64,000 nt of DNA from a virus (IMGVR_UViG_3300049846_002561:1-64000), one strand, 5' to 3'. Shown: positions 3,772-46,789, counted from the first letter of the stretch. Notes: a model not told the origin generated them from the letters alone. A program made the numbers and translations.

Positions 3772-6678
3772 GTGGTAGAGAATCCATATTGGTTCCCGCA
3801 AGGGGGGTCCGGGGGATCCGGAAGCGTAACGTCAGCGAACTTCGTTTCACTGCAGGCAAAGGTAGACGCCGTAAGCAACGCCGTCTCCATCGTGTCCGCC
3901 GCAACTGCCTCCGTAGACGCTAGGATAGATTCCGTTTCCAACGCCGTATCCACGGAAGTCGCAAGTCGCACGAGCGCCGATAATGCCCTTAGCGCAGCGA
4001 TCGCCGCCCTGAGCAACTCCCTCTCTTTAGTACACGATGGACTAATACTCAACGAAGTGTCCGCGGACACCTCAGCAGCACCAACGAGTGCCGTAAAAAT
4101 ATACGCCACCGACGAAAATGGAATATCACGGACATTCATCGTCGATGCAGACGGAAGACGAATACAAATATCCAGAGATCAAACGCTCGTAGTCCGAAAC
4201 GGAAACGCAGGCAACATCGTGGCTGGACAAGCCGTATACCTGGCAAGCGCAACAGGTGGATTCATAAAGGTAGACCTCGCCAAGGCAGACTCCCTTTCCG
4301 CCATGGCCGCCATCGGCATAGTGCGCGATGCCGTGATCTCCGCAAATGCCTTCGGTGTTATAATAACAGAAGGTGTACTCAGCATCAATACCGCAACATA
4401 CACGGATGGCGATAAACTATACGTGGATACCTCCTCAGCAGGGGGGCTCACAAACGTAAAGCCCACATACCCAAACTACCCACAGCAAGTAGGAACGGTA
4501 ATGAACGCCGGAGTAAACGGAGGCCTGTTCGTACACATAGAGGAGGTCGATATCCTAGACAACATCTCCGCCCTAAGCAACTCTATAAGCGTACTCAACC
4601 AACAAGTGTCAGCGCTGTCAGCAAGGGTGGACGCCAACTCCGCGCAAATGGCATCGGCCAACGACGCTATAAGCAACGCCGTGTCGATCGTTTCCGTTGC
4701 CGCCGCCAATGCTCTATCAAATGTCAACGCCGTAAGCCAGGCTCTATCCGTGGAAACAGCAAGTAGGGTCTCAGCAGTCAATATAGTAAGTAATGCGGTT
4801 TCTATTGTCAGTGTAGCAGCTGCCAATGCCCTCTCCGTAGCGAACGCAGCATCGAACGCCGTGAGCGTGGAAACAGCTAACCGGATAAGTGCCGTAAATG
4901 TAGTTTCTAATTCACTGAGCGTAGAAATAGCCAACAGGATAAGTGCCGTTAACGCTGTGTCAAACGCCGTTTCCATTGTTTCTGTAGTGGCAGCTAATGC
5001 CACTAGCATTGCTAATGCCGCTAGCAATGCAGCGTCTATTGTAAGTGCGGCAGTCGTTTCTGTAAGCGCTGCCCTTGAAAGTCATATTAACACGGTTTCA
5101 AATGCCGTATCGCTAGTGTCTGTCGTCGCTGCAAACGCCCTTTCGGTGGCTAACGCGGCTTCTAACGCAGCATCGGTAGTAAGTGCCGCCCAGGCTGCCA
5201 CAAGCGCCGCCGTAACGTCAGTGAACAATAGGATATCAGCGGTAAGCACAGACCTTACGTCTTTTAAAGCCTCCCTAGACAATTTCGGAGATGTCTCCGC
5301 TACCGGAGCAACAAGCGGACAGGTACTTACCTTTATCAGTGGGCAGTGGACAGCCCAAACACCAACCGCCGGGTCTGGATCGGTAACTTCAGCGGAACTA
5401 AGCGCCGCCGTGGCCGCACTCTCCAACTCTATAAGCGTAGTGAGTGCCGCCACCGCACTTAAAAATCCAATCGTCACCGTTCAGGAAGAAGGCTCTAATG
5501 TCGCAAGTAGCCCAACAATCATTAACTTCAGGGGTCCCGGAGTAAGCGTAAAAACAAGCGCCGGCGTAGTGATCGTAAGCGTAGCAACGGGCGGAGGCGG
5601 CGGATCCGTTACCTCGGCCAACTTCGCCTCCCTACAAAGTGTAGTGCAGGCAAATAGCGCGCAGATGACATCCGCAGACAATGCGATAAGTAATGCCGTC
5701 TCCATCGTCAGCGTCGCCCAGGCCGCCACATCCGCGGCAGTGACAAGCGTAAATAACAGGGTGTCCGCAATAAGCACAGACGTTACATCTATTCATGACA
5801 CCCTTAGCGATGTTGTATCTGACCTAGCCGTTTTGTCTGTAAATGTTTCCGCGTTATCCACGCGCTTATCAGCATTATCATCTCAGGTAAATACAAATTC
5901 GGCGCAGATGACCTCCGCAGACAACGCAATAAGCAACGCCGTGAGCGTTCTGTCAGTGGTCGTTTCAAATGAGATCTCCGCCAGGACTGCCGCGAGCGCC
6001 GCGCTAGAATCTCACATCAATACCGTATCAAACGCCGTGAGCGTGCTCAGTGCCGCCTTTAGCAATCAGCTGTCTATAATATCTGTTGCCATTGACGGTT
6101 TAAGCAACAGGGTATCCGTTCTCTCCGTTAACGTTGACACGTTAAGCAATAACGTTTCCGCACTAAGCGCGGCCATTGTCGTTCTGTCAAACCAAGTGTC
6201 TGCCGCTGGAGGTTTTCAACAGAAAGTGGTTCAGGGAACTCAGTCTATATCAACTTCGGCACTCACTCAGATAAGCGGACTTAGCGTGTCTGTAGCTGCT
6301 AATGGAGCATACAAGATAGAGGCATACTTGATTTACAACGTATCTGCTATATCAGCTTCCGGATATAACCTTGCCCTCGTTGCTTCCGGATTAACTCAAC
6401 AAACGGCGAATGGAAATTGGCAATTTACCTCAGCGCAACCTGTATCAACGGGCGGAACAGCCATTGCCCTAGTAAATCAACCATTCAACGGACTTAGTGG
6501 CGCTGCCATTTCCGTAACTTCTGCCGGAACAGCTCAACTAACATTTTCAAAGCTAGAAGCCATAGTGGTCGCAAGTACAACGGGTGGAACGCTCGTTATA
6601 CAAGGAAAGACAACGGTTGCATCAAACTCCCTCTACATATACAAGGGATCCTACATTAAAGCCTTCAAAATAATTTAA
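3772..6678 (+). CDS. Ser/Ala/Val/Asn-rich repetitive fibre or adhesin-like protein, probably a virion appendage
   Basis: 968 aa; many SNAVSIVSVAAANA repeats; repeated GSVTSA linkers; beta domain with AGQAVYL...AIGIV...GDKLYV typical of phage fibre/cement modules; beta-rich C-terminal head. Confidence 0.7.
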   Translation: MVENPYWFPQGGSGGSGSVTSANFVSLQAKVDAVSNAVSIVSAATASVDARIDSVSNAVSTEVASRTSADNALSAAIAALSNSLSLVHDGLILNEVSADTSAAPTSAVKIYATDENGISRTFIVDADGRRIQISRDQTLVVRNGNAGNIVAGQAVYLASATGGFIKVDLAKADSLSAMAAIGIVRDAVISANAFGVIITEGVLSINTATYTDGDKLYVDTSSAGGLTNVKPTYPNYPQQVGTVMNAGVNGGLFVHIEEVDILDNISALSNSISVLNQQVSALSARVDANSAQMASANDAISNAVSIVSVAAANALSNVNAVSQALSVETASRVSAVNIVSNAVSIVSVAAANALSVANAASNAVSVETANRISAVNVVSNSLSVEIANRISAVNAVSNAVSIVSVVAANATSIANAASNAASIVSAAVVSVSAALESHINTVSNAVSLVSVVAANALSVANAASNAASVVSAAQAATSAAVTSVNNRISAVSTDLTSFKASLDNFGDVSATGATSGQVLTFISGQWTAQTPTAGSGSVTSAELSAAVAALSNSISVVSAATALKNPIVTVQEEGSNVASSPTIINFRGPGVSVKTSAGVVIVSVATGGGGGSVTSANFASLQSVVQANSAQMTSADNAISNAVSIVSVAQAATSAAVTSVNNRVSAISTDVTSIHDTLSDVVSDLAVLSVNVSALSTRLSALSSQVNTNSAQMTSADNAISNAVSVLSVVVSNEISARTAASAALESHINTVSNAVSVLSAAFSNQLSIISVAIDGLSNRVSVLSVNVDTLSNNVSALSAAIVVLSNQVSAAGGFQQKVVQGTQSISTSALTQISGLSVSVAANGAYKIEAYLIYNVSAISASGYNLALVASGLTQQTANGNWQFTSAQPVSTGGTAIALVNQPFNGLSGAAISVTSAGTAQLTFSKLEAIVVASTTGGTLVIQGKTTVASNSLYIYKGSYIKAFKII

Positions 6679-6710
6679 TTTGCTTGTTTAAAGTTTAGTG
6701 CCTATATTTG
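6679..6710 (+). promoter_or_regulatory. Bacteroidota sigma-70 promoter (-33/-7)
   Basis: TTTG (6679-6682), 20-nt spacer, TATATTTG (6703-6710). Confidence 0.75.
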
Positions 6711-6717
6711 TCATCAA

Positions 6718-6888
6718 ATGGCAAAAGTAGGCAAAAAAGATCTTCGCATCGTAGACCCTCCTGACGACGTTTGGAATTACGTTATTGCTAGATCTAAGAA
6801 GAGTCTTAGATCTCTACCAAATGAATTAATAATCATAATCAGAGAACATCAAGAGCAAGAATGGAAGAAAAAGAAAAGAAGCACCTGA
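6718..6888 (+). CDS. Arc/MetJ-like ribbon-helix-helix DNA-binding protein (not in the ORF track)
   Basis: MAKVGKKDLRIVDPPDDVWNYVIARSKKSLRSLPNELIIIIRE resembles the Arc LR.P......A....RS...E....I pattern. Confidence 0.6.
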   Translation: MAKVGKKDLRIVDPPDDVWNYVIARSKKSLRSLPNELIIIIREHQEQEWKKKKRST

Positions 6889-9518
6889 ACATTGAAGAGA
6901 ACATGAAGATCTCTTACTGCATCCCGGTAGAGCTCCGCGATGAGCAGATAAAAATAAACATCGGTAAAGTAAAGGAGCGACTATCTCCATCTACTGAACT
7001 GATAAAGGAGCCAATCGCATTAGTTAGCTTTGGCCCTTCTTTAAACGATACGTGGAGGGAGCTCAAGAAGTTCAATCACATCATCACCTGCTCTGGAGCG
7101 CACAAGTTCCTTCTTGACAAAGGCCTCTCCCCAAATAATTTCAAGCACTGGTATCACGCCGACCTAGATCCAAGGGAGTATAAAATAAAGATACTCGGAG
7201 AGCCAAGGCACGGCATCGAGTACCTTATCGCCTCAACAATTCACCCGAAGTATTTAGATGCCCTAAAAGGCTACGACGTTAAGCTGTGGCATATATTTGC
7301 TACCGACGATGAGGCAGAGAGGGTTCTTCCCAGAGGAGAGTGGAAGTTTACCGGTGGATCATCCGTTGGATTGAGAACGTTTACACTGGCAAGGGCACTA
7401 GGATATACCGACTTCCACGTGTTTGGAATGGATGGTAGCATGAGGCCAAATGAGACTCATACCACAGAGCACCCAAATCCACCACCTCAATCTGCGGAGA
7501 CAGAGTATAAGGGGAAGAAATATATCACTACGCCATCAATGCTCCACGTAGCCAAGGAAACCTTTAAGGAAATGGATCAGCTCCCTGACTGTAAGTTTAA
7601 GTTCTACGGAGAAGGACTCGTTCAGGATATGGCAAAGGACTACGTTCCAAATGTAAAAAGAGGCTCTAGTCTTGCTTTTGTGTCCGAGGAAACGATTTCT
7701 AAGGAGTATATTGAACTCAATAGGAAGTTACACGAGGACAACCCCTCCTACGGAATGGGAGGTAGCAAGTACGTGAATACGGTTCTTGAGCTCTCTAAAG
7801 CAAATAAGACTACTAGCATCCTTGATTATGGATGCGGAAAGGGAATGCTCGCAAAAGGACTTCCTTTCCCTATATGGGAGTATGATCCCGCCGTTCTGGG
7901 TAAAACAACGGTTCCCAAACCAGCAGATATAGTTGTGTGTACGGATGTTCTTGAGCATATAGAACAGGACAAACTGATGATCGTGCTTCAGGATTTGAAG
8001 AGGTGTGTGAAGCAGGTTGGATACTTTGTGATAAGCACAAGGAAGGCCGTGAAGACCTATGCCAATGGCGAAAATGCTCACCTCATTGTTCAGGGCAAAG
8101 ATTGGTGGGAAAAGAAACTCAAGAAGTATTTTGAAGTTGGAACAGTAATTGAAAAAGAAAAGGAATGTGAGCTTCACGTTATTGTTGGCCCAAAGAAAGA
8201 GGTTCAGCCGGAGATAACCACTATTGAAAAAGGTGGACTGAAGTTTAAGTTCTACACTCCAAATGATACTACAAGGTGGAGGGCAAACACGCTGTTCATA
8301 AAAGAGCCGACAACGATAGATTGGCTAGACTCAATAAAGCATGGGGAGGTGTTGTATGATGTTGGCGCTAACGTTGGATCTTATACCGTGTATGCCGGGG
8401 TGCGAGGGGTAAAGGTATACGCATTTGAACCGGAGGCAGAGAACTATGCCATGCTCGTGAGAAACATGAGGTTAAATGGGCTAGATCCTACAGCCTACTG
8501 CGTTGCGTGTTCTGATAAGCAGAGAACCGTTAGCCTGTCTGATTATAAGTTTGAATTTGGAATGCTCAATTTAAGTATGCCGGGCGCTGGAGGATCGTGT
8601 CATAGCTTTAATGAAAAGGAAAGCAACATTAAACAGGGATGCTTTTCGACTTGCATAGACAACATTGCGGGGAAACTGTTTTGTCTTCCAAAGCCCGATC
8701 ACATTAAAATTGACGTGGATGGAATAGAGCATTGCGTAGTGTTTGGAGCTGCGAACACCCTGAAAGATGTGAAGTCGATCATTGTGGAGATTGATCCAAA
8801 TTCAGAAAATCATAAGAAGATGATTTTAGAACTAGAAAGACTTGGGTTTTACTATGACCAAGCTCAAGTTGATAGGGCAACAAGAAAAGAAGGGAATTTC
8901 AAAGGATATGCAGAATATGTATTCAGAAAAAATGTCTTAAAGACGTCGGCTCATGTTTATCCGTTTTTTGTTTTAGATAATGTGTTTACAGAAAACTACG
9001 ATAAGATAGTTGAAGTTTCACGAAATTTAAAGTATCAATCCCTTGAAGAGGCAAGGGGCACAAAGGGATATCCAGAGAGATATGTAGCCGGCGTTGATGA
9101 AAAATCTTTTTTACTGATAAAAAACGGCATCAATCAGCTAAAAAAAGAAATCTGTGAAGAGTTCAATCTTAACGCTGAAGACTATGATACAGACCTTCTG
9201 TTCATAAACGATAAGCCAGGATACAAGATAGGAGTCCACAGAGACAGGCTAGACAAAGTAGTAACGGCTTTGATATACCTTCCTGAAAACACAAACAATA
9301 GTCATGCCGGGACGTCCATCTATAAACCAAAGAAAGAAGGATTTTCTTGCCCTGTCGGTAAACACTATGGATTTGATGATTTTGATAAGGTTGAAACTAT
9401 TGGGTACGTGCCAAACAGGGCGTTTGTATTCCTCAACACAGATCACTCCTTCCATGGCGTAGAGCCTTGTGATGTGGAAAGACATGTTTTGCTAATGAAT
9501 TTAAACAAGAAAAAATGA
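6861..9518 (+). CDS. Four-domain fusion: Maf/DUF115-like transferase + class I SAM methyltransferase + FkbM methyltransferase + 2OG-Fe(II) oxygenase
   Basis: VSFGPSL...GGSSVG...FGMDGS (Maf/MptE-like); LDYGCGKG...DVLEHI; YDVGANVG...AFEP...IKIDVDG (FkbM); HRD...FHGV...R (2OG-Fe). Confidence 0.8.
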   Translation: MEEKEKKHLNIEENMKISYCIPVELRDEQIKINIGKVKERLSPSTELIKEPIALVSFGPSLNDTWRELKKFNHIITCSGAHKFLLDKGLSPNNFKHWYHADLDPREYKIKILGEPRHGIEYLIASTIHPKYLDALKGYDVKLWHIFATDDEAERVLPRGEWKFTGGSSVGLRTFTLARALGYTDFHVFGMDGSMRPNETHTTEHPNPPPQSAETEYKGKKYITTPSMLHVAKETFKEMDQLPDCKFKFYGEGLVQDMAKDYVPNVKRGSSLAFVSEETISKEYIELNRKLHEDNPSYGMGGSKYVNTVLELSKANKTTSILDYGCGKGMLAKGLPFPIWEYDPAVLGKTTVPKPADIVVCTDVLEHIEQDKLMIVLQDLKRCVKQVGYFVISTRKAVKTYANGENAHLIVQGKDWWEKKLKKYFEVGTVIEKEKECELHVIVGPKKEVQPEITTIEKGGLKFKFYTPNDTTRWRANTLFIKEPTTIDWLDSIKHGEVLYDVGANVGSYTVYAGVRGVKVYAFEPEAENYAMLVRNMRLNGLDPTAYCVACSDKQRTVSLSDYKFEFGMLNLSMPGAGGSCHSFNEKESNIKQGCFSTCIDNIAGKLFCLPKPDHIKIDVDGIEHCVVFGAANTLKDVKSIIVEIDPNSENHKKMILELERLGFYYDQAQVDRATRKEGNFKGYAEYVFRKNVLKTSAHVYPFFVLDNVFTENYDKIVEVSRNLKYQSLEEARGTKGYPERYVAGVDEKSFLLIKNGINQLKKEICEEFNLNAEDYDTDLLFINDKPGYKIGVHRDRLDKVVTALIYLPENTNNSHAGTSIYKPKKEGFSCPVGKHYGFDDFDKVETIGYVPNRAFVFLNTDHSFHGVEPCDVERHVLLMNLNKKK

Positions 9519-10222
9519 ATACGGTATACATAGGGTACGATTACCGGGAGGCTTTAGCGTACAACGTAGCTGAGCACTCCATTAAAAGCAGATCTGTTGG
9601 TGTCAGAGTGCAAATGTTGAGGCTTCAGGATTTAAGGTCACTGATATACAGGAAAGTAGAGATGCGCGGAAATCAGATGTGGTGTCCTATAAGTGAGGCT
9701 CCCGTTGGAACAGAGTTTACGTTCAGCAGGTTCTTGATACCAAAGATGGATTCCGGGTGGTCGATATTCATGGACTGCGATATCGTGTGCGTATCAGATA
9801 TAAGGGAGCTGTTTGAGTTCATAAACGCTCCGGAAAACCAAAAGTATGCCGCCATGTGCGTAAAACACAATTATGTTCCAAAGGAAAAGATACACATGGT
9901 AGATCAGATACAGACTGTTTATGACAGGAAAAACTGGGCATCCGTAATTGCTTTTAATTGCGATCACGAGGCGCACAGAAGGCTTTCCTTTGAGGACATA
10001 AACACGTGGCCCGGAAGGGACCTGCACGCTCTTAAATGGATGAAGGACGAGGAAATAGGAGAGCTGCCCGCTGAGTGGAACCACCTTGTTGACGTGAACG
10101 ACCCTAATCCAGGCGCCAAGATACTACATTATACCCTCGGTGGGCCATGGATACCGGGGTGGCAGCCAAAAGAAAGCGATAACGCATGGATTGAAGAATA
10201 CAATAAATTTATATCTTTGTAG
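9515..10222 (+). CDS. GT-A fold glycosyltransferase (GT8-like)
   Basis: YIGYD, FTFSRF, FMDCD (DxD), RKNWAS, EWN and HYTLGGPW. Confidence 0.8.
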   Translation: MNTVYIGYDYREALAYNVAEHSIKSRSVGVRVQMLRLQDLRSLIYRKVEMRGNQMWCPISEAPVGTEFTFSRFLIPKMDSGWSIFMDCDIVCVSDIRELFEFINAPENQKYAAMCVKHNYVPKEKIHMVDQIQTVYDRKNWASVIAFNCDHEAHRRLSFEDINTWPGRDLHALKWMKDEEIGELPAEWNHLVDVNDPNPGAKILHYTLGGPWIPGWQPKESDNAWIEEYNKFISL

Positions 10223-10224
10223 TC

Positions 10225-10641
10225 ATGTCTTCAAGTCCCGGAGCTACATTCAGAGATTTCTATGCGCATAGCGCACCGTGGCCTATCCCCGACTGGTTTA
10301 CTCCAAACGGGGTGGGTCCCCGCCCCGCGGACATAACGCCCCCAGATGAGTACTTCGTATATGATCCGGATAATGCCGCAACGGCTCAGTACGGACTGTA
10401 CAAATTTTACGATCGTGATACCAACTACTGGGATGATGACGAGGCGGCCATCGAGACCGGTGAGGCCGTGCCACACGCCTTTAAGAATGAGGTGAGTGAG
10501 TACTGGGCGGCATACGACTACCGCGTGGCGGAAATAAACGTATGGCAGCGTGACTACGACAAGGAAAGATACTTTCAGTGGCGCTGGTACTACGCCGATG
10601 AGATGCTCGTGAAGAGAGAATACGGAAACATATCAAACTAA
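10225..10641 (+). CDS. Hypothetical W/Y/D-rich protein
   Basis: 138-aa ORF; TATCTTTG box at 10212-10219, 5 nt before the ATG. Confidence 0.6.
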   Translation: MSSSPGATFRDFYAHSAPWPIPDWFTPNGVGPRPADITPPDEYFVYDPDNAATAQYGLYKFYDRDTNYWDDDEAAIETGEAVPHAFKNEVSEYWAAYDYRVAEINVWQRDYDKERYFQWRWYYADEMLVKREYGNISN

Positions 10642-10654
10642 CAATAACGAAACA

Positions 10655-11401
10655 ATGACAACAGCTACAGAACAGATACCGTTGATAATTCCGGTATTCA
10701 ACCAACTGACATTTACAAAGAAACTGGTGGACTCCTTCCGGAAGTACTATCCAAAGAACAGGATATACATCCTCGACAACGGCTCTACATATCAGCCACT
10801 GAAAGACTGGCTAAAGGCCATAAACGATGGAACGGAAGAGCAAAACGTTGTTGTCTTTCATTCCCCTGAAAATGATTTTCGTGGCAACCTACGCCACTTC
10901 CTTGACGACTACATTCACGTAGGATATCCTTTCTACGCAATTTCCGATCCCGATATCGAGATCCTCGATGGGACACCTGAAGACTTCATGAGCTACTTCA
11001 TGACCGCTATCGAGGTTGGTGGATTGCATCGCGCAGGCTTTGGCCTTAAAACGGATGACATCCCAGATTACTTTGAAGATAAGGCCATGGTGGTGGGCAA
11101 TGAGGCGGAGCTCAAGAAGTCGCCAATGTGGGCAAACAAGGTGCAGGGGTGGATCGCCCCCCTTGACACTACCTTCTGTCTATACAAACGAGACAACGGA
11201 GGGTGGGCATCGCCAATGGATGGCAAAAAGTGGGGTAGCTGCGCGCGTATATTCGAGGCTAAGCACTGGGGTTGGTACATCGATCCAAACAATGTAAGTG
11301 AAGAGATGGACTTCTACTTTAAGACGTGCAATAAATTCATTCCAGGCACTCCCTCTGCCGGAGCAAACAACAATAGACCAAAGAAATATGAAAACAGTTA
11401 A
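10655..11401 (+). CDS. Glycosyltransferase family 2-like
   Basis: IIPVFN, ILDNGST and SDPD (DxD). Confidence 0.75.
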   Translation: MTTATEQIPLIIPVFNQLTFTKKLVDSFRKYYPKNRIYILDNGSTYQPLKDWLKAINDGTEEQNVVVFHSPENDFRGNLRHFLDDYIHVGYPFYAISDPDIEILDGTPEDFMSYFMTAIEVGGLHRAGFGLKTDDIPDYFEDKAMVVGNEAELKKSPMWANKVQGWIAPLDTTFCLYKRDNGGWASPMDGKKWGSCARIFEAKHWGWYIDPNNVSEEMDFYFKTCNKFIPGTPSAGANNNRPKKYENS

Positions 11402-11984
11402 CAGAATACACTACGAAGACGTGGTGAACAACGTTCTCCTTGTGGGGACACTTGATCATAATGTGTTTCAGGGGTTCCTGGAAGATTACAGAACCCTCTC
11501 CTGCTTACTTAAAGAATATAAACCAAATTCTGTATTTGAGGTTGGAACAAACGTGGGCTCTGGTATCAATGTCATGGCTGCAGCGTTGCCCCTAGCTAAG
11601 ATATACAGCCTGGATCTCGACTATGAGACCATGATGCTCAACAGTAAGCAATATCCTATCGGTCCGAACGGAGAGGATCGCGTGGGATCGGCGGCAAGAG
11701 TTCAGTACACACAGCTTCGCGGGGATAGCCTTACGTTTGATTATTCCGCATATCCATGTGAAGCGTACTACGTCGATGGAGAGCATGACTACGATCATCC
11801 GTTCAAAGAGACAAAGGAGATCCTAAAGCAAAAGCCAAAGATCGTCATTTACCATGACGCTGACATTCCAGAAGTATTTAAGGGAATCGTTGATGGCGGT
11901 GCGGAAGATGATGATTACGTTCTATTCCGCGTGGAAGGGACAAGGATCGCCTTTTACCTGCACAAGAATTTCGTGAAATGGTAG
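11388..11984 (+). CDS. Class I SAM-dependent methyltransferase (Methyltransf_24-like)
   Basis: FEVGTNVGSG, GDS, VDGEHDY and YHD; ATG at 11388 preferred over the track start at 11298. Confidence 0.75.
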   Translation: MKTVNRIHYEDVVNNVLLVGTLDHNVFQGFLEDYRTLSCLLKEYKPNSVFEVGTNVGSGINVMAAALPLAKIYSLDLDYETMMLNSKQYPIGPNGEDRVGSAARVQYTQLRGDSLTFDYSAYPCEAYYVDGEHDYDHPFKETKEILKQKPKIVIYHDADIPEVFKGIVDGGAEDDDYVLFRVEGTRIAFYLHKNFVKW

Positions 11985-12670
11985 GCATTGTAGTTATCGC
12001 CTACAATAAACCCGACTTCATACGCCTGCAGATAGAGAAAATAAGTAAGTACTGCAAGGACGTGCACGAGATCGTTATTGTAGACAACAGCACGGACAGG
12101 GAGATGTCCGCCGCTGTAAAGTATCACTCGGAGGGGCGCAAGTACATAAAAACAAACGCCTCCTCTTCCGGGGGTAGTCAGTCGCATTCCTTTGCTGCCA
12201 ACCTATCGTTCATGCGCCTATGCGGAAAGTATGATTACTTCCTGTACCTCGATCATGACTGCTTCCCTGTAATGGACTTCTCCGTTCCTGAGATATTGGG
12301 TGAAAAAATTATTGCCGGTGTGGGGCAGGTGAAGGGAGAGAAGACGTACCTGTGGCCGGGGTGCCTGATGTGGAAGGGAGAAGCCATCGCCCCAGGTTAT
12401 ATCGACTTCTCTCCAAATGAGGAGCTTGGTCTTGACACCGGCGGTAACCTATACCGAATTGTCGATCACTATGGCCGGGAAAAGGTTTTGTTTCTAAATG
12501 AGGAGCACTGCGAGAACCCGCAATTCAATAAGTCCTTCTATAACTTTTACTGCATGATAAACAATGGTATGTTCATGCACTTTGTAAATGGCAGTGTCTG
12601 GAACAAAACAGTATCCGATGACGAAAGAGTGAACTCCCTTATAAACATACTAACCGAAAAAACGAAATGA
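11978..12670 (+). CDS. Glycosyltransferase (GT2-like, GT-A fold)
   Basis: VVIAYN, IVDNS, YLDHD (DxD) and DTGG. Confidence 0.7.
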   Translation: MVGIVVIAYNKPDFIRLQIEKISKYCKDVHEIVIVDNSTDREMSAAVKYHSEGRKYIKTNASSSGGSQSHSFAANLSFMRLCGKYDYFLYLDHDCFPVMDFSVPEILGEKIIAGVGQVKGEKTYLWPGCLMWKGEAIAPGYIDFSPNEELGLDTGGNLYRIVDHYGREKVLFLNEEHCENPQFNKSFYNFYCMINNGMFMHFVNGSVWNKTVSDDERVNSLINILTEKTK

Positions 12671-15594
12671 AGTGCGCCGTAATTTTTTACCACAAGAATG
12701 CCCTGCAGATATACAGGAGAGAGTGGATAAATGACTGTATCTACACAATAAAAAATCAGACGTTCAAGAACTTTGATGTTTTTGAGCTTAACTACGGCGG
12801 ATCCGAAGATCGCTTTGGTGAGGGCGTTTTTAGTAATTACATATTCATCCAAAAGCAAATGGAGAATCACATAGAGGCCATGAACTATCTATACTCTATG
12901 TTGTTTGCTAATGGATACGACGTGGTATTTAATACCAACCTTGATGACTTTTACTCGGAGCGTAGGTTTGAGGTACAGCTTTCATACATAGAGCAGGGAT
13001 ACGACATCGTTAGCTCAGACTTCAAGTATGTGAACGAGAGGTCCGAGGCATACAAGGACATGGTGATGACTCAAAAGGGTGGTATTGCGGAAAACCTGGC
13101 AAGGAACCACAACGTTATAGCCCATCCATGTGTGGCCATGAGTAAATCCTTCTGGGACGACAACCTACACTATAAAAACATCCTCGGAAGTGAGGATCTA
13201 GACCTATGGAAGAGGGGCGTTGTTGCGGGCAAGAAGTTCTTCATTATCCCTGAGTTCCTGTTGTTCTACAGGATCCACGATACGCAGGTAACCAAGGAAT
13301 TTCGGTCAAAAAAAAAGGTTAACCTAATGGTGATCGCCACAAATAAGTACCGGCACTTTGTGGCGCCATTACTTGACTCTGCAGATAAGTACTTCCTCGA
13401 TGATTGCGACGTAGAGTATTGCGTGTTTACAGACGATATTACGGACATGGAAAAGCGCCTCAATAGGCCGTGCCACATCTTCGAGGTCAAGCATCAGCCG
13501 TGGCCATACATGACCCTCCATCGCTTCCATGTGTTTAGGAAGTACATGAACGACATGCCTACGGCGGACTACTATGCGTACATAGATGCAGACACTCTGT
13601 TTAAGGGTATTATCACCAAGGAAATACTCAGCAACGAAACGGTTGTGCAGCACTGCGGCTTTACAAATCAAAGGGGGCCATACGAGACGAACCCTATGTC
13701 AGAGAGCTTTGTTCCCCCTCAGATGGGAACCCATTACTTCGGAGGTGGATTTTGGCTATTCTCAAAGGAGCGATTCCCGCACATCGTAAACTTGGCCATA
13801 CAGATGATAGACACGGATGCCGGTAGAGGAATAATACCGGTGTGGCATGACGAAAGCGTGTTGAATAAATTAATGGTAATGTCTCCGCCGGAGAAGATAC
13901 TGCCCCCCGCATACCACTATCCTCAGTCCAGGACCGCCCATTACATAAAAAAGTGGGGTCGTAACTACGAGTGTAAAATACTGCTTCTTGACAAAAATCA
14001 CGATGAGTATCGCAAGGAAGATGAAAAGCCAGAGGTCTCAGTGTGGCTAGAGAGATATCCATTTGTTACCATGTCTAACTTCGGTAGCAACGGTCGCCTT
14101 GGGAACATGATGTTTCAGTACGCCTTCCTGATCGGATTATCAAAGAAGTACAACGTGGACATCAAAATGCCAGCGTTCAGGAACATGCCTGACACCAGAC
14201 CGGAGTCCATGGAAAACGTGCTCCCGCGTAAGGAAAGGAGCTTTCACTACACGCCTCAGTACTATGACGAGATGAACTGGCAGCGGTCGTGGGACTTCTC
14301 CGGATACTTCCAAAGCGAAAAGTACTGGTCTCACTGCCGGGAGGCGGTAATATCGGCGCTTGCCTTTAATGACGGCGATCACATGGGCGCTGTTGAGTCC
14401 ATGGGTAATGCCTTCTCCAGGGAGACGATCGCCATCCACATTCGCCGCGGAGACTACGTAAATAACAAAAACTACTATCAGCTCACGGCAAGGTACTACA
14501 TATTGGCCCTTGAGGAGAATTTCCCTAACTGGAGGGACTGTAACCTGGTATTTTTCTCAGATGACATTGAGTATGCCATGATCCACTTTGAGTGTCTCGA
14601 TAACGCATACTTCTCTGAGGGGCATAGCGAGATAGAGGACATGTTCCTAATGTCCAAGTGCGACAATCACATAATAGCCAACTCCACCTTCTCGTGGTGG
14701 GGAGCATACCTCTCAAAAAGTAAGAAGGTAGTTTGCCCGGCAAACGTCTTTGACACCAAGATGAAGGTCACGCACAATACCAAGGACTTCTATCCGGAGG
14801 GGTGGGTAAAGTTCAGTGATGAGGGTAAGAGGATAAACCTACAGAACCTTACTTTTATCATACCGGTAAAGTTTGATCACCGTGACAGGATACAGAACTT
14901 TGAGATATCTACCGCTATGATACGCGAGAATTTCGTGGCTCCGATATATGTTGGTGAGATCGCTAAGGTGGGAACATTCTTTAATAAGAACTGCGATGTA
15001 TACACGGAGTTCAAGATGCACAACTTCCACCGCACAAAGATGATCAACGACATGGTGAAGAAGATAAGCACCCCGTTCTTTGTAAACTATGACTGTGATG
15101 TTCTCCTCGCCCCCATGCAAATCATGGAGGCTGTACGTAAGCTACAACAGGGAAGTGACATGGTATCGCCATACGACTGGAGGTTCTCCAGGGTGCCTCG
15201 CGCATGGGAGCCCGCGCTCAAAAAGAACACCGATGTAGGCATATTCTCCGGTCACAGGAACTCTTTCATAGGGTTCCGTGAAGGGGACAAGGAGAGCTGG
15301 GGGGGAGCTATATTTTTCAACAAGGAATCGTTCATAAAAGGAGGAATGGAAAATGAGAACTTTATATCTTTTGGTCCTGAAGATTCGGAAAGGCTTCAGC
15401 GATTTTCTAAGCTTGGATTTTCGGTATGCAGAGTTAGGGGGCCACTCTATCACCTCGATCACTTTAAAGGAATTGATAGCGGGAAAACTCATGCGTTTTT
15501 TCAGAAAAATAAAGCCGAGTTCAAGAAAATACTCGCCCTGAGCGCTGAAGATCTTAGAAAATATGTAGATTCGTGGTCATGGTTAAAGGCTTAA
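12667..15594 (+). CDS. Four-domain glycosyltransferase: GT2 + GT6 (ABO-type) + GT11 (alpha-1,2-fucosyltransferase) + GT7-like
   Basis: GT2: NLDD...HP...EDLDLW...YRIH. GT6: IATNKY...DAD...YFGGGF...WHDESVLN. GT11: GRLGNMMFQYA, HIRRGDY, FSDD, ANSTFSWWGAYL. GT7-like: YDCD, WGG, GGMENENFISFGPED. Confidence 0.85.
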   Translation: MKCAVIFYHKNALQIYRREWINDCIYTIKNQTFKNFDVFELNYGGSEDRFGEGVFSNYIFIQKQMENHIEAMNYLYSMLFANGYDVVFNTNLDDFYSERRFEVQLSYIEQGYDIVSSDFKYVNERSEAYKDMVMTQKGGIAENLARNHNVIAHPCVAMSKSFWDDNLHYKNILGSEDLDLWKRGVVAGKKFFIIPEFLLFYRIHDTQVTKEFRSKKKVNLMVIATNKYRHFVAPLLDSADKYFLDDCDVEYCVFTDDITDMEKRLNRPCHIFEVKHQPWPYMTLHRFHVFRKYMNDMPTADYYAYIDADTLFKGIITKEILSNETVVQHCGFTNQRGPYETNPMSESFVPPQMGTHYFGGGFWLFSKERFPHIVNLAIQMIDTDAGRGIIPVWHDESVLNKLMVMSPPEKILPPAYHYPQSRTAHYIKKWGRNYECKILLLDKNHDEYRKEDEKPEVSVWLERYPFVTMSNFGSNGRLGNMMFQYAFLIGLSKKYNVDIKMPAFRNMPDTRPESMENVLPRKERSFHYTPQYYDEMNWQRSWDFSGYFQSEKYWSHCREAVISALAFNDGDHMGAVESMGNAFSRETIAIHIRRGDYVNNKNYYQLTARYYILALEENFPNWRDCNLVFFSDDIEYAMIHFECLDNAYFSEGHSEIEDMFLMSKCDNHIIANSTFSWWGAYLSKSKKVVCPANVFDTKMKVTHNTKDFYPEGWVKFSDEGKRINLQNLTFIIPVKFDHRDRIQNFEISTAMIRENFVAPIYVGEIAKVGTFFNKNCDVYTEFKMHNFHRTKMINDMVKKISTPFFVNYDCDVLLAPMQIMEAVRKLQQGSDMVSPYDWRFSRVPRAWEPALKKNTDVGIFSGHRNSFIGFREGDKESWGGAIFFNKESFIKGGMENENFISFGPEDSERLQRFSKLGFSVCRVRGPLYHLDHFKGIDSGKTHAFFQKNKAEFKKILALSAEDLRKYVDSWSWLKA

Positions 15595-15636
15595 TGGTTA
15601 TAGCATGCGTTCTTATTATCTCTGCGATCTGCATCT

Positions 15637-16389
15637 ATGGAGAAAAAAAATGATCTTGTATACATTGTAGGTGCCGGATCGCCGTGGCTGAACAACGAGC
15701 TGCGCTACTCCCTGCGAAGCGTAGATAAGTTCCTAAAGAACTACAGGAACGTATTTATATTTGGTGAGTGCCCTATATTTATCAATAGGTCGTCCGTGAT
15801 ACACGTCCCGCACCAGGATACAAGCAGAGATAAGGCAGTGAACATAAAGAATAAGCTTATGTCCGTATGTTGTCATCCCGACGTTAGCGAGGATTTTATG
15901 TTCTTTAACGACGACTATTTCCTGCTAAAGGATGTTGACGCTACCAGCTACCCATATCTGTGGAAGTGCGACCTTGATCACACCCTATCAATAAACAGGT
16001 CCCTGTACCGCCATCACGTTCAATCAACAATAAATGTACTTACAGAGAACGGCCTTCCAACAAAAAACTTTGACACCCACAAGCCGATCATATACAACAA
16101 GCAAAAACTCTGGGACGTTATATTTAAATACAACTGGGAGGGGCGCGCCGGCTATACCATGCGGTCCCTATACTGCAATACCCTCGGCATAGAGGGTGAG
16201 TATCGCCTGGACTGCAAGTTTAACGTGCCCATGCACGATGTCCGCCTGGAGCAGAAGGTTACCGGTGAGGATTGCTTTTCCATTGATGATAGGTGCATAG
16301 GAATGTTCCTCAAGCGCTTCATGGAGAGAACCTACTCGGAACCGTCACGATTTGAACGGGAGATATTACCGGTAAAGGGTACCTCGTAG
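15637..16389 (+). CDS. Stealth-family-like sugar-1-phosphate transferase
   Basis: DLVY (CR1-like), ELRYSLRSV and FNDDYF (CR2). Confidence 0.7.
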   Translation: MEKKNDLVYIVGAGSPWLNNELRYSLRSVDKFLKNYRNVFIFGECPIFINRSSVIHVPHQDTSRDKAVNIKNKLMSVCCHPDVSEDFMFFNDDYFLLKDVDATSYPYLWKCDLDHTLSINRSLYRHHVQSTINVLTENGLPTKNFDTHKPIIYNKQKLWDVIFKYNWEGRAGYTMRSLYCNTLGIEGEYRLDCKFNVPMHDVRLEQKVTGEDCFSIDDRCIGMFLKRFMERTYSEPSRFEREILPVKGTS

Positions 16390-17559: not shown

Positions 17560-17832
17560 TTACGCTACAGCAGTTGACGCTGTTGAGGTGTAGTTCGTGA
17601 AGCTCGTATCGCGAAGGTTGGCCGTCGCAAACGGGATCTCGATTCTCCTCAGAGCAGCGTTCGCGGCATCCTTAATGGTAAACACGATCAAGAACTTTGC
17701 AGTGCTTGACGGGCCATTTACGTTTGCCGGAAGATCGATTTTCTCTGCTGTGATCACATCTTCAACGGGAACCTTGATGGTTGGTTTCAAGGAGTTAGTG
17801 AAGTGGACCATTGGTTTTGAAATGCCTGACAT
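17560..17832 (-). CDS. Hypothetical protein, possibly a small structural protein
   Basis: 90-aa ORF with its own TATATTTG promoter (17869-17862) and an A-rich leader. Confidence 0.6.
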   Translation of the reverse strand: MSGISKPMVHFTNSLKPTIKVPVEDVITAEKIDLPANVNGPSSTAKFLIVFTIKDAANAALRRIEIPFATANLRDTSFTNYTSTASTAVA

Positions 17833-17882
17833 GGTGTTTTGTTTTTTGAGATTAAGATTTACAAATATACAAATTTTTAATT

Positions 17883-17908
17883 AAAAAAGCCCCGAAGGGC
17901 TCTTTTTT
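17883..17908 (-). terminator. Rho-independent terminator closing the tmRNA coding piece
   Basis: Minus strand GAGCCC-TTCG-GGGCTT followed by a T-run; A/T runs on both sides. Confidence 0.8.
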
Positions 17909-18036
17909 AGGCTGCAAGTTTTGCAGTGTGACTAGCGCCTTCCTGGAAGAGGCTGATCACCTTTGTTTTTTTGTCGTTTAGTACTTCCCGAAGATATCTC
18001 TTCTTCTCGGCTCACTGATCAAAACCGGTCGGACCC
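17884..18036 (-). ncRNA. ssrA: tmRNA coding piece (5' half of the tRNA-like domain plus tag reading frame)
   Basis: Starts GGGTCCGACCGGTTTTGA; TAAAC precedes resume codon GAC (17975); tag (A)DKKTKVISLFQEGASHTAKLAA with stop at 17909-17907. Confidence 0.85.
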
Positions 18037-18215
18037 ATGTCGGAACAGTGCTCTCAGCCAGGGCGCTTTGAACCGTTGGCCAATGGAAGATGTTCCGTTT
18101 GTTCGGCGAAGAACATTTCTTTAGTTGCCTTTCCGGCAGGACTGTCCTGCATCTCTTTGTTATCAGTCCTTCTTCAACTATCATGACAACAACCGCTTTA
18201 ATTAAGCTACGGTAG

Positions 18216-18258
18216 GGTGGATCCGGAGGGATTCGAACCCTCGTCTCAATGAACGGCG
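18216..18258 (-). ncRNA. ssrA: tmRNA acceptor piece of a circularly permuted two-piece tmRNA
   Basis: GTTCATTGA-GAC-GAGGG-TTCGAAT-CCCTC-CGGATCC-ACC; pairs with GGGTCCG to give a G3.U Ala identity pair; lies upstream of the coding piece. Confidence 0.85.
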
Positions 18259-18276
18259 ATAAAGGTAATAAAAAAA

Positions 18277-18308
18277 TTTGGTGGTTCGGAAAATAGTGCC
18301 TAATTTTG
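18277..18308 (+). promoter_or_regulatory. Bacteroidota promoter, divergent from the tmRNA
   Basis: TTTG (18277-18280), 20 nt, TAATTTTG (18301-18308). Confidence 0.7.
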
Positions 18309-18311
18309 TGT

Positions 18312-18429
18312 CAATCTTTGCTGCCGTAAACAGGAAGGAGGTTTGAAAGACATTATGCTTTTTGCTGGTAGAAAGCAAAAAAGCTAAAAACAAACCCTCT
18401 GATTTTACGGGTCAGAGGGTTTTGTTTTT
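18312..18429 (+). ncRNA. Candidate ~115-nt small RNA with intrinsic terminator
   Basis: Lies between the promoter and a strong hairpin (18386-18402 with 18412-18429); internal hairpin 18357-18384; no convincing ORF. Confidence 0.45.
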
Positions 18430-46252: not shown

Positions 46253-46789
46253 ATGGCTTGTTCAAAGTGTAAATCAAATAAATGCTGCTGCCCAAAGGTG
46301 ATCACAAAGATCGGCCCTCGTGGCCCGAAAGGTCCTCCCGGCCCGAAAGGTCGTGATGGCCAGGATGGTCTCAGGGGACCGCAAGGCCCGGCATTCGTTC
46401 CCGACGTTAACTTCATCGAAAGGGAAACGTTTCAATTCATAAACGTAGGATCTCCAACGGCCAATGACTCTGACCTTATAGTGTCTGGTCTTGCCGCCGG
46501 TACCTATATGGTTTTTGTTGAGGTTGACACCATTTTCAACAGGGATACTAACGTTGCAGAAAACGGATCGATCTCTATTTTCTTGAACGGAACCCTCAAT
46601 GAGAGAAACATAAACTTTGACAACCCAGGTGTCCAGAAGAGAGGCTTTAAGCTTGTCCTTAATGCCGTTGTGGTGCTTGCCGCTCCCGGAAACATATCGG
46701 TGAACTACTCAATGACGTCGTTCCCGTTGAACCCAACCACTTCTTTCACATTCCTTAAAGGATCAATAACCACATTAAAAGTATCGTAA
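46253..46789 (+). CDS. Collagen-like fibre protein
   Basis: CSKC...CCC N-terminus, GPRGPKGPPGPKGRDGQDGLRGPQGP Gly-X-Y run, beta-sandwich-like C-terminus. Confidence 0.75.
   Translation: MACSKCKSNKCCCPKVITKIGPRGPKGPPGPKGRDGQDGLRGPQGPAFVPDVNFIERETFQFINVGSPTANDSDLIVSGLAAGTYMVFVEVDTIFNRDTNVAENGSISIFLNGTLNERNINFDNPGVQKRGFKLVLNAVVVLAAPGNISVNYSMTSFPLNPTTSFTFLKGSITTLKVS

Follow-up and report, generated by a model that had tools for sequence, protein, structure and literature searches.

The serine-rich repeat adhesins of streptococci consist of disordered Ser-X dipeptide repeats and are accompanied by a GtfA/GtfB pair of GT4 glycosyltransferases, by Gly enzymes and by SecA2/Y2. The BclA-type collagen-like fibres of the Bacillus exosporium are glycosylated, as are surface proteins of chloroviruses and mimiviruses. 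Flagellin is O-glycosylated by Maf enzymes, such as the Magnetospirillum Maf of solved structure (5MU5), Aeromonas Maf1 and CbMaf of Clostridium botulinum, the last of which can use Neu5Ac and Kdo donors according to the available text of PMC11339370. In mycobacteriophages, according to the excerpt of PMC12619734 that cites Freeman et al. 2023, capsid and tail-tube subunits accept glycans at their C-termini.

The locus described here (Table 1) lies in a window of 64,000 nucleotides, which is the whole stretch of DNA that was analysed, and belongs to an uncultured tailed phage with a genome record of 73,491 bp (73.5 kb) that is 100% complete by CheckV. Nine genes whose products are soluble, sugar-modifying enzymes devoid of membrane segments come after the fibre gene on its strand; 183 bp separate the end of the fibre from the enzyme-fusion gene, and from this gene (6861) through 15594 the genes overlap or abut. 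The open reading frames (ORFs) fall where the original prediction had placed them, and its description of a Ser/Ala/Val/Asn-rich fibre followed by sugar-modifying genes was borne out by the ORFs and their composition. Its count of seven glycosyltransferase (GT) domains is fair, two of them being borderline in Pfam, and the predicted lack of nucleotide-sugar synthesis genes agrees with Pfam, which found none when ORFs from all parts of the record were scanned. It also stated correctly that the tail-fibre genes are distant, the recognizable ones lying at 46253-47544, ~40 kb away, yet the large terminase is on the same strand only 3.7 kb downstream of the locus.

Table 1. Coordinates of genes and domains in the fibre and glycosylation locus
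Feature	Position (nt)	Strand	Residues	Basis or remark
968-aa fibre	3772..6678	+		periodicity, composition
Globular knob in fibre	4171..4533	+	about 134-254	sub-threshold PF09956 match
C-terminal TNF/C1q-like jelly-roll tip of fibre	6247..6675	+	826-968	model, fold search
56-aa ORF	6718..6888	+		between fibre and enzyme gene; overlaps enzyme gene start
885-aa four-domain enzyme	6861..9518	+		Pfam, profile searches, model
Maf-like transferase domain of 885-aa enzyme			about 1-270
MT23 methyltransferase domain of 885-aa enzyme			about 279-445
FkbM methyltransferase domain of 885-aa enzyme			about 497-663
2OG-Fe(II) oxygenase-like domain of 885-aa enzyme			about 697-880
GT8-like retaining GT-A glycosyltransferase (phrog_28018)	9515..10222	+		Pfam, profile
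138-aa ORF, first gene of module 2	10225..10641	+		no family match
GT2 glycosyltransferase	10655..11401	+		Pfam 30.0 bits
228-aa ORF, possible methyltransferase	11298..11984	+		Methyltransf_24 E 0.0084, 17.4 bits, cutoff 26.3
GT2 glycosyltransferase (phrog_2456)	11978..12670	+		Pfam 26.9 bits
975-aa four-domain glycosyltransferase	12667..15594	+		Pfam, structure matches
GT2-like domain of 975-aa protein			1-200	Pfam 23.7 bits, borderline; 20.5 scanned alone
GT6 domain of 975-aa protein			210-449	Pfam 96.4 bits
GT11 domain of 975-aa protein			466-716	Pfam 82.3 bits
GT7C/GT2-like domain of 975-aa protein			723-974	Pfam GT7C 30.5 bits; DCD at 808-810
250-aa Stealth-like protein (phrog_7999), putative sugar-1-phosphate transferase	15637..16389	+		CR2 only

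The enzyme encoded directly after the fibre joins four catalytic domains in one chain. The originally predicted Maf-like domain is clearly present, with the MptE-like/Maf family (PF01973, MAF_flag10) matching residues 44-192 at 53.1 bits vs a Pfam cutoff of 34.6, and a profile built from 33 sequences finds the solved Maf 5MU5 at E 1.9e-7. This sequence match is confined to chain residues 264-427 of 5MU5, i.e. the central Maf domain, leaving the flanking Maf domains unmatched. An AF2 model (pLDDT 89) likewise has 5MU5 as its top Foldseek match (E 8.7e-9, 254 columns, 18% identity, rmsd 6.0, query TM score 0.38), with the archaeal MptE kinase 8sd5 at rank 20, and GPSL (58-61) together with several His/Asp residues is invariant in the alignment. 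Two of the three predicted methyltransferase domains were recovered by Pfam, namely Methyltransf_23 (42.2 bits) and the FkbM family Methyltransf_21 (41.4 bits); the third, a weak Methyltransf_24 match in module 2, is not counted. The predicted oxygenase matches 2OG-FeII_Oxy_3 (PF13640) at 21.5 bits, which is below the cutoff of 27, but the HxD...H iron triad is readable as HRD and a distal FHG; a profile of this domain finds the hydroxylase 9blq at E 0.0086, and in another locus (L022) a gene of its own encodes the 2OG domain (E 3.1e-5). At least 322 full-length homologues of the enzyme are found in the database, where they are named only 'FkbM family methyltransferase'. The adjacent GT8-like protein scores, as a single sequence, 24.2 bits vs a Pfam cutoff of 24.3, with homologues reaching 32 bits, and its 50-sequence profile contains an invariant DxD (D87, D89) and H205 and matches the GT8 domain of WbbM (6u4b) at E 2.9e-7.

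The fibre is rich in Ala (17.5%), Ser (16.7%), Val (14.0%) and Asn (8.3%) and contains three heptad coiled-coil segments, at about residues 20-95, 265-520 and 625-830, with periodicities of 3.5 and 2.33. Each segment starts with a G-rich linker and GSVTSA[NE][FL], the coil matches the designed VSALKEK trimer tag, and the model of the fibre is helical in the stalk, with globular domains. Serine and threonine make up about 25% of 14 Maf-adjacent fibres and equally of eight similar fibres whose contigs, only 14-39% complete, yielded no Maf, so the serine richness is a property of this class of coil and no mark of a partnership with Maf. From its sequence, the globular knob may be a domain like that of capsid cement (decoration) proteins, which we offer as a lead only: it aligns to positions 2-99 of the 103 in Phage_cement_2 (PF09956) at E 0.0014 and 19.4 bits (Pfam cutoff 24), and has an Atlas feature score of 0.93 to viral clusters, 19% of whose members carry PF09956, while BLASTP of the knob against one cement protein gave no match.

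The tip is the part of the fibre that is conserved beside Maf genes in other phages, and it is modelled as a beta domain with a pLDDT of about 90. The best solved fold matches of this model are TNF-like lectins, i.e. PLTL (9ib6; Z 13.2, rmsd 2.2, 121 aa), the structure of which includes the blood-group B trisaccharide, and BC2L-C-Nt (2wq4); the C-terminal domain of BclA and F-BclA each match at Z 8.5. These lectin-like matches would fit a reading in which the acceptors lie elsewhere on the virion, among its capsid, decoration or tail proteins, and the fibre is a co-transferred, lectin-tipped adhesin that might itself bind the glycan made by the enzymes; the cassettes do lie beside capsid genes in relatives, and capsid and tail-tube subunits carry the glycans in the mycobacteriophage account cited above. 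We nonetheless regard this as distinctly unlikely, given that the TNF-like fold is a generic tip of phage fibres, with hundreds of matches to the tip in a BFVD fold search, collagen-repeat fibres among them, that no sequence similarity of the fibre to the matched lectins was found, and that the enzyme gene abuts the fibre gene and not a capsid gene in most of the loci described next.

The locus consists of two mobile modules, 3772-10222 and 10225-16389, which move independently of each other. Alignment of the enzyme found 538 viral stretches, the best 79 loci of which were kept, and 40 of these have the Maf domain. An ORF with the fibre-tip domain is present in 16 of the 40 Maf loci vs none of the 39 others, the profile for this domain having been built partly from the same loci, and SAVN-rich (Ser/Ala/Val/Asn) ORFs of at least 300 aa in 23 of 40 vs 3 of 39; the loci are phylogenetically non-independent, and the counts contain duplicates of one contig (L007/L018, L012/L034) and a near-identical pair (L051/L052). 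A tip-domain fibre is lacking in 24 of the Maf loci, and 7 of the 40 have less than 1.5 kb of upstream sequence. Where the fibre is present, it ends at most 40 bp before the Maf start, or overlaps it, in 14 of 16 loci, and the GT8-like gene is a conserved partner of the MT23 domain (55 of the best 79 enzyme-seeded loci). In the reverse direction, the enzyme was found in 4 of 14 fibre-seeded loci. The carriers of module 1 have differing capsid and portal families, with the cassette placed among head or fibre genes, and the portal of the present phage occurs in none of five carrier records; conversely, neither the enzyme nor the fibre tip occurs in any of 15 records whose portal is related, five of which are at least 90% complete, the positive control for this search having returned 5 of 5. 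The data thus support a genetic tie of the fibre to the Maf-like/methyltransferase/oxygenase fusion and the GT8-like gene, in tight synteny across unrelated phages.

The second module behaves differently. Its homologues are absent from about 92 fibre or module-1 (Maf) loci, and the 79 loci seeded with module 2 contain no fibre tip, GT8-like gene, Maf domain or SAVN-rich ORF, which suggests that its target may be something else. The co-occurrence of fibre and GT genes that had been proposed as a check therefore holds for module 1, in its association with the tip and their joint absence from the portal relatives, and fails for module 2. A single 10-kb island, which by the original prediction's own account would be refuted if island and fibre assorted independently, has to be given up, as the GT2/GT6/GT11/GT7C/Stealth half, from which the 'fucosylated' glycan had been deduced, does assort in this way, and by that standard its link to the fibre fails.

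Within module 2, the catalytic motifs are intact. The GT6 domain has D307-A-D309 and W393-H-D-E396 at the places of N95-A-N97 and W189-H-D-E192 in BoGT6a, and matches BoGT6a (4ayj) at E 6.4e-30 and human ABO at about 1e-23, while its score with NCBIfam NF041524 is 142 bits, below the cutoff of 250. GT11 α-1,2-fucosyltransferases are characterized by an HxRRxD motif, which reads HIRRGDY here (591-597), with R593, G595, D596 and Y597 invariant in the homologue alignment. The four-domain architecture of the 975-aa protein is shared by only 2 of 66 database relatives. The predicted Stealth-like enzyme stands on CR2 (43.8 bits vs a Pfam cutoff of 39.4), with CR1, CR3 and CR4 giving no match at E up to 1; elsewhere its gene follows GT11/GT7C (L188) or is fused to GT11 (L178). 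At its listed start, the 228-aa ORF shares about 100 bp with the preceding gene.

The independence of module 2 from the fibre bears on the possibility of host-surface remodelling, in which the soluble GTs, above all those of module 2, would act on lipid-linked LPS, O-antigen or capsule intermediates of the host during infection and alter the cell surface, e.g. by hiding the receptor so that superinfection, or the capture of progeny by debris, is avoided, with the fibre as an ordinary neighbouring adhesin. GT11/GT6/GT7C homologues are neighbouring genes in 105 cultured-phage records, mostly of T4-like Synechococcus and Prochlorococcus phages, such genes are interpreted as modifying the cell wall or LPS in the available text of PMC12801897, and bacterial relatives of the GT6, GT11 and GT8 enzymes (BoGT6a, WbbM) make surface glycans. 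However, no initiating phosphoglycosyltransferase, flippase, polymerase, ligase or membrane segment was found in the island; the phage looks lytic, with little time to re-dress the cell, because the scanned ORFs yielded no integrase; module 2 lies within head or fibre gene blocks in other phages (L181, L188); and the tight adjacency of fibre and Maf would be left unexplained. Remodelling is in our view a serious but rather unlikely explanation. Far less probable still is DNA hypermodification, in which the transferases would decorate modified bases of the phage DNA. Phage GTs that glycosylate DNA are described in the accessible parts of PMC12801897 and PMC12619734, and Pfam identifies a Dam-type methyltransferase at 141-848, but Pfam detected no dNMP hydroxymethylase, thymidylate-synthase homologue or base-modifying gene among the scanned ORFs of the genome, the relatives of the Maf, GT6, GT8, GT11 and Stealth domains with solved structures use glycan or protein acceptors, and the linkage is to a fibre gene.

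Glycosylation of the fibre is thus the best reading for module 1, and we give about an even chance to the overall proposal that two horizontally mobile glycosylation modules have become neighbours within a single run of late-strand genes, the first being a fibre-decoration cassette. The fibre as acceptor, its position on the virion, the donor sugars and the order of the steps are as we infer them. The fibre would be a heptad coiled-coil trimer with a length of about 70 nm, which displays Ser/Thr regularly and ends in the TNF-like tip, and it would be made in the cytoplasm together with the soluble four-domain enzyme. Following the action of Maf on flagellin, the Maf-like domain would probably move a host-supplied, CMP-activated ulosonic sugar (Kdo or of the Pse/Leg type) onto Ser/Thr of the fibre; a host-supplied donor is plausible because of the donors accepted by CbMaf in the available text of PMC11339370. 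Both methyltransferase domains and the 2OG oxygenase domain would tailor the sugar or the protein, with the GT8-like enzyme adding an α-linked hexose. Module 2 would build a Gal / α1,2-Fuc / α1,3-Gal(NAc) cap resembling histo-blood-group (H/A/B) structures, possibly joined via a sugar-phosphate from the Stealth-like enzyme; in the present phage, the glycan that it extends is most likely that of the fibre or of a different virion protein, while elsewhere it acts without this fibre.

The pairing of a fibre with a Maf-type enzyme is probably the sign of an unstudied mechanism by which phage fibres are coated with sugar. A bolder version, which we consider improbable, makes the fibre, placed on the head or at the side, glycoprotein and lectin at once: the stalk would carry a methylated ulosonic-acid core, built by the virus and capped by a histo-blood-group A/B/H-like trisaccharide, and the tip would be like the bacterial lectins that bind just these fucosylated blood-group glycans. 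If so, glycan-lectin contacts could attach virions to the glycans of other virions or of infected cells, or else the virions could present an imitation of animal or host glycans that serves in adhesion or shielding, and the Maf-like/methyltransferase/GT8 cassette would be a system of protein O-glycosylation that is widespread in tailed phages and entirely unstudied.

Among the known systems, the streptococcal adhesins, to which the locus had been likened, resemble it in that the gene of a Ser-rich surface fibre has several GT genes next to it, and the GT8-like profile weakly matches 5gvv (E 4.3e-5), which we take to be the pneumococcal enzyme glycosylating PsrP. The analogy is weak, as the phage fibre folds into a heptad coiled coil and globular domains and is not a disordered Ser-X repeat, and Pfam found no GtfA/B-type GT4, Glycos_transf_1 or accessory Sec families among the window ORFs scanned. 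BclA-type fibres resemble the phage fibre in having a trimeric stalk with a C-terminal TNF/C1q-like head, but the stalk here is an α-helical coiled coil instead of collagen; chloroviruses and mimiviruses also encode multi-domain GT/methyltransferase enzymes, and the enzymes of the BclA, chlorovirus and mimivirus systems are unrelated to those described here beyond GT-A or methyltransferase folds. With the side-by-side GT11 and GT6 genes of T4-like cyanophages, module 2 shares GT6, GT11 and GT7C-like domains that are 30-36% identical, and BoGT6a, an enzyme that converts 2'-fucosyl-lactose into an A-antigen-like product, comes closest to its GT6 domain; module 2 differs in fusing four GT domains into one protein, in following a fibre cassette and in having DXD where bacterial GT6 enzymes have NXN. 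Mycobacteriophage virion glycosylation likewise relies on phage-encoded glycosyltransferases, virion proteins and host-derived sugars, but its acceptors are C-termini of capsid and tail-tube subunits, and the available portion of PMC12619734 mentions no Maf-like enzyme or dedicated coiled-coil fibre. From the Maf system, the phage locus is set apart by its phage-encoded enzyme, which has only the central domain in common, lacking the full three-domain architecture, and is joined in one chain with two methyltransferases and a 2OG oxygenase, by a phage fibre and methyltransferase domains as neighbours in place of a flagellar or flagellin context, and by the lack of nonulosonic-acid synthesis genes found nearby. 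The likeness extends to a central MAF_flag10/MptE-like domain that is homologous in sequence and fold, to a soluble cytoplasmic enzyme encoded beside a filament protein that is partly coiled coil and has Ser/Thr exposed, and to a plausible reliance on host-made activated sugar, as for CbMaf. A cultured analogue of module 1 is found in the Caulobacter phage CcrColossus, where a tail protein, a gene annotated as sialyltransferase, a homologue of the GT8-like gene (29% identity, E 2e-30), MT23 and GT9 follow one another. Synteny of fibre and enzyme genes would also be seen if their products merely served the same process.

The 968-aa fibre and the neighbouring 885-aa enzyme, a fusion of Maf-like, MT23, FkbM and 2OG oxygenase domains, form an accessory cassette that is gained and lost jointly and that moves between unrelated phage lineages. 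When viral contigs are scanned with the fibre, 14 loci are recovered, four of which (L007, L008, L009 and L012) carry a Maf/MT enzyme (45-50% identical) lying among S74-chaperone, glycine-rich or laminin-G fibre genes. Single-protein queries of viral contigs with the enzyme or the terminase returned no matches, alignments being needed, and the enzyme alignment matched at least 538 stretches. Among the best 79 loci of these 538, which include duplicates or near-duplicates and are phylogenetically non-independent, an ORF with the fibre's tip domain (its C-terminal TNF/C1q-like jelly roll) accompanies 16 of the 40 Maf-domain loci (41 by the tblastn criterion; seven of the 40 with less than 1.5 kb of upstream sequence) as against none of the 39 MT23-only loci, the tip profile having been built partly from loci in which it was counted, and a Ser/Ala/Val/Asn-rich ORF of at least 300 aa accompanies 23/40 as against 3/39. 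The tip-domain ORF overlaps the Maf start or ends at most 40 bp before it in 14 of the 16 loci. The GT8-like gene tracks the MT23 domain and not the Maf domain, being present in 23/40 Maf-domain and 34/39 MT23-only loci of the same best 79 of 538 (55 of the 79 by tblastn).

The carriers of the cassette have differing capsid and portal families (HK97-type, Phage_capsid_3 and _4, P22 and SU10 portals), and the cassette is placed in them among head, protease, terminase or fibre genes; the portal of the present phage, which has 570 database relatives, occurs in none of five carrier records. Conversely, 15 IMG/VR records with a portal 39-54% identical to it, five of them at least 90% complete, contain neither the enzyme nor the tip domain (0/15 each), with the positive control of the tip profile detected in 5/5. 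It is this linked presence in the carriers, together with the joint absence in the portal relatives, which indicates that fibre and enzyme are gained and lost together, and the co-occurrence of fibre and glycosylation genes anticipated in the original prediction is thereby borne out for the fibre and the Maf/MT enzyme.

The virus record comprises 73,491 bp and is rated 100% complete, the window covering its bases 1-64000, and its main gene blocks were assigned with PHROGs and Pfam. The island, i.e. the cassette with its GT8-like gene (module 1) and the GT genes that follow (module 2), precedes the terminase on the same strand, and its ORFs downstream of the fibre mostly overlap or abut. The 183-bp gap between the fibre and enzyme genes contains a basic 56-aa ORF that overlaps the start of the Maf/MT gene, and the stretch just before the fibre gene is filled by a run of small ORFs. 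Pfam matched the domains previously read from the island, with the third methyltransferase weak (E 0.0084), two GT calls borderline and the CR2 region alone detected in the Stealth-like protein; the 2OG oxygenase domain scores under the Pfam cutoff, its HRD...H triad being readable in the sequence. Promoter and terminator scans gave the counts found in shuffled sequence and say nothing on operon structure, and Rfam finds no RNA family anywhere in the window. An ARAGORN tmRNA* call (tag peptide DKKTKVISLFQEGASHTAKLAA), situated where genes are sparse, past the island and ahead of the terminase, and adjoined by a strong terminator-like hairpin, lacks Rfam support and is probably false. Two giant ORFs of the structural module have no Pfam or PHROG match.

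Positions of features in the window
Feature	Position	Strand	Basis
Run of small ORFs, 48-79 aa	2870-3762	+	
968-aa fibre ORF	3772-6678	+	ORF call
56-aa ORF	6718-6888		
Nine island ORFs	6861-16389		
Module 2	10225-16389		
tmRNA* call (probably false)	17816-18308	-	ARAGORN
Terminator-like hairpin	18392-18422		
Packaging, head and tail genes	about 20.1 to 52 kb	+	PHROGs/Pfam
Large terminase	20105	+	PHROGs/Pfam
P22-like portal	22985	+	PHROGs/Pfam
Giant ORF, 1493 aa	30996-35477		
Giant ORF, 2588 aa	37878-45644		
Collagen-like and tail-collar fibre genes	46253-47544	+	PHROGs/Pfam
Short collagen-repeat tail-fibre protein	46253-46789		Pfam Collagen, E 8.5e-5
Ig-domain protein and lysis genes	within about 20.1-52 kb block	+	PHROGs/Pfam
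Replication genes	52 kb onward	-	PHROGs/Pfam

The composition of the fibre (A 17.5, S 16.7, V 14.0 and N 8.3%) had suggested a likeness to the serine-rich repeat adhesins of streptococci, which is weak: those adhesins consist of a disordered Ser-X repeat, whereas the repetitive parts of the phage protein have a periodicity of 3.5 and 2.33 residues, both for hydrophobics and for Ser, a pattern characteristic of heptad coiled coils (here of the VSxLSxx type). Three coil segments are present, each starting with a Gly-rich linker and GSVTSA[NE][FL], and the sole sequence-level structure match of the coils is the designed trimerisation tag VSALKEK. Compared by sequence with solved structures, the tip gives no lectin or TNF match, only chance coil matches. 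Modelled by AF2 with 17 homologues, residues 769-968 form a helix and, after it, a confidently predicted beta jelly roll; the best solved matches of this model include the PLTL lectin of Photorhabdus (9ib6; VIA Z 13.2, rmsd 2.2 over 121 residues), from an entry family solved with blood-group B trisaccharide. BC2L-C-Nt of Burkholderia is also among the best TNF-like lectin matches, followed by Pgp3, Bdellovibrio fibre tips, C1q/TNF domains, cyanophage fibre domains and BclA (Z 8.5). Phage fibres of the viral structure library commonly end in this fold, annotated tail fibres and collagen-repeat fibres among them; what it indicates is therefore limited to a trimeric fibre tip that plausibly binds sugar. 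Residues about 134-254 form a globular insert that matches a phage cement-protein family below threshold (E 0.0014, 19.4 bits, near-full profile length), a language-model lead indicating the same family; this would fit a capsid-anchored fibre, predicted to stand at three-fold sites, which is only a lead.

The partner enzyme is related to the Maf proteins. A profile of its residues 1-460, aligned with 32 homologues, matches the Magnetospirillum Maf (5mu5, E 1.9e-7), which is also the best Foldseek match of the AF2 model of this part (pLDDT 89; E 8.7e-9), with small-molecule O-methyltransferases ranked below it as matches of the second domain. Invariant positions of the alignment include GPSL at 58-61 and several His/Asp residues. 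The 235-aa protein encoded downstream belongs to a family with an invariant DxD, the profile of which matches the GT8 domain of WbbM (E 2.9e-7), the GT8 structure 5gvv (E 4.3e-5) and, weakly, the Skp1 alpha-galactosyltransferase. The database holds 322 full-length homologues of the enzyme. Among bacteria, Alpha- and Betaproteobacteria commonly encode the MT23 domain by itself, in surroundings that give no clue (loci L118 and L131), and the bacterial Maf+MT forms adjoin phage genes; MT-then-Maf fusions occur with a GT8-like neighbour at L099, and at L104 with an S74-chaperone protein and no GT8-like match. A homologue of residues 464-881 (FkbM-MT and 2OG, 37% identity) without the Maf domain sits between the large terminase and portal genes of a circular 44.4-kb podovirus genome from a spring (MW202512.1, L097, 6416-7873).

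In the reading with the best support, to which we give roughly an even chance, module 1 would glycosylate, in the cytoplasm, the fibre that it encodes: O-glycosylation would be initiated by the Maf-like domain from a CMP-ulosonic sugar made by the host, and methylation, oxidation and the addition of an alpha-hexose would follow. No island enzyme has a membrane-type hydrophobic segment, PMC11339370 describes a Maf that can use Kdo and Neu5Ac, and the earlier remark that the phage has no nucleotide-sugar synthesis genes is upheld for the ORFs scanned across the whole genome. Two observations stand against fibre glycosylation. The tip-domain fibre is missing from 24 of the 40 Maf loci, and Ser+Thr is about 25% both in Maf-adjacent fibres and in similar fibres of Maf-less contigs, the latter being fragments, so that serine richness was rejected as a mark of partnership with Maf. 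For the oxygenase domain, which is of the P4H type, the short collagen-repeat tail-fibre protein of the same genome is a possible alternative substrate. Modification of phage DNA by the island enzymes is unlikely; no base-hydroxymethylase was found among the ORFs scanned across the genome.

The genes accompanying Maf in other phages vary. At L043 (11359-19165) the Maf gene is followed by genes for a radical-SAM/SPASM protein, a methyltransferase, a GT4 and a 778-aa double-GT2 protein with TPR, and at L029 (6796-10218) by a second MptE-like gene and a sugar C-methyltransferase-type gene; such differing sets suggest that glycan tailoring differs between phages. In the related viral contigs L008 (16220-17836) and L012 (6349-7965), the fibre genes are separated from the Maf/MT enzyme by a gene of the tryptophan-halogenase family (Pfam E 9.5e-105), and at L017 (9027-10216) S-adenosylmethionine decarboxylase and spermidine-synthase genes directly follow the fibre-Maf-GT8 cassette.

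The island had been read as one fibre-linked unit, but it falls into two independent modules, a result that corrects a tempting over-reading of gene neighbourhoods. Homologues of the module 2 genes are found in none of roughly 92 fibre- or enzyme-seeded loci. Reciprocally, a viral scan with the family of the 975-aa GT2-GT6-GT11-GT7C protein gave 578 stretches, and the best 79 loci kept from these contain no tip domain, GT8-like gene, Maf domain or Ser/Ala/Val/Asn-rich ORF (0/79). The four-domain architecture is shared by two of the 66 database relatives (55% and 51% identity), the others being GT11+GT7C, MT23+GT11, GT11+GT25+GT7C or GT10+GT11+GT2 fusions. The 51%-identical relative is encoded on a 53.8-kb contig that also has a portal 63% identical to that of the present phage. 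In three of the 79 loci the parts are arranged differently: at L188, GT2-like, GT6, GT11+GT7C and Stealth_CR2 are encoded one after another by separate genes, ahead of a podophage fibre gene, L178 has a GT11-Stealth fusion, and at L181 GT11 and GT2 stand between the portal gene and the protease/capsid genes. GT11+GT7C is present in 2 of 15 portal relatives, and of five cassette-bearing records one encodes GT11, some 50 kb away from the cassette.

The families of module 2 predict, from sequence, a Gal / Fuc-alpha1,2 / Gal(NAc)-alpha1,3 structure, i.e. an H/A/B-like epitope, the chemistry beyond GT6 following from what is generally known of these families. For the GT6 part it is supported by passages of PMC3961637. 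The nearest relatives of the GT6 domain are Bacteroides BoGT6a and the human ABO transferases; it keeps WHDE and has DXD where the bacterial form has NXN, and the GT11 domain keeps HIRRGDY. The module may lengthen the fibre glycan, although its independence from the fibre counts against a necessary link; it may instead modify another virion protein, for which its place in late or structural gene strings, here and in other phages, speaks; or it may act on host glycans.

As at least 538 viral stretches match the enzyme, the cassette is common in uncultured phages. Cultured-phage records gave no match to the island by megablast, nor to the portal or the Maf domain by tblastn. The label of one portal homologue names a Candidatus Wunengus (Brocadiaceae) MAG as its source; this is not taken as a host assignment. 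Cultured counterparts exist for both modules. Relatives of module 2 occur in T4-like cyanophages as neighbouring GT11 and GT6 genes, and Caulobacter phage CcrColossus has, in order, tail protein gp125, an annotated alpha-2,3-sialyltransferase, two unknown genes, a GT8-like homologue (29% identity, E 2e-30), an MT23 methyltransferase and a GT9, an analogue which makes the cassette directly testable in phages of this type. No description of a Maf/DUF115 enzyme tied to a phage fibre was found in titles and abstracts and in parts of PMC12801897, PMC12619734 and PMC3961637, and in the literature examined, including portions of the first two, experimental proof of phage virion glycosylation concerns mycobacteriophages only. 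If the fibre is truly glycosylated, flagellin-type O-glycosylation would be extended to viruses, and the result would be relevant to the shielding or tuning of adhesins by phages and would offer compact multi-domain enzymes (Maf-MT-MT-2OG; GT2-GT6-GT11-GT7C) for glyco-engineering.
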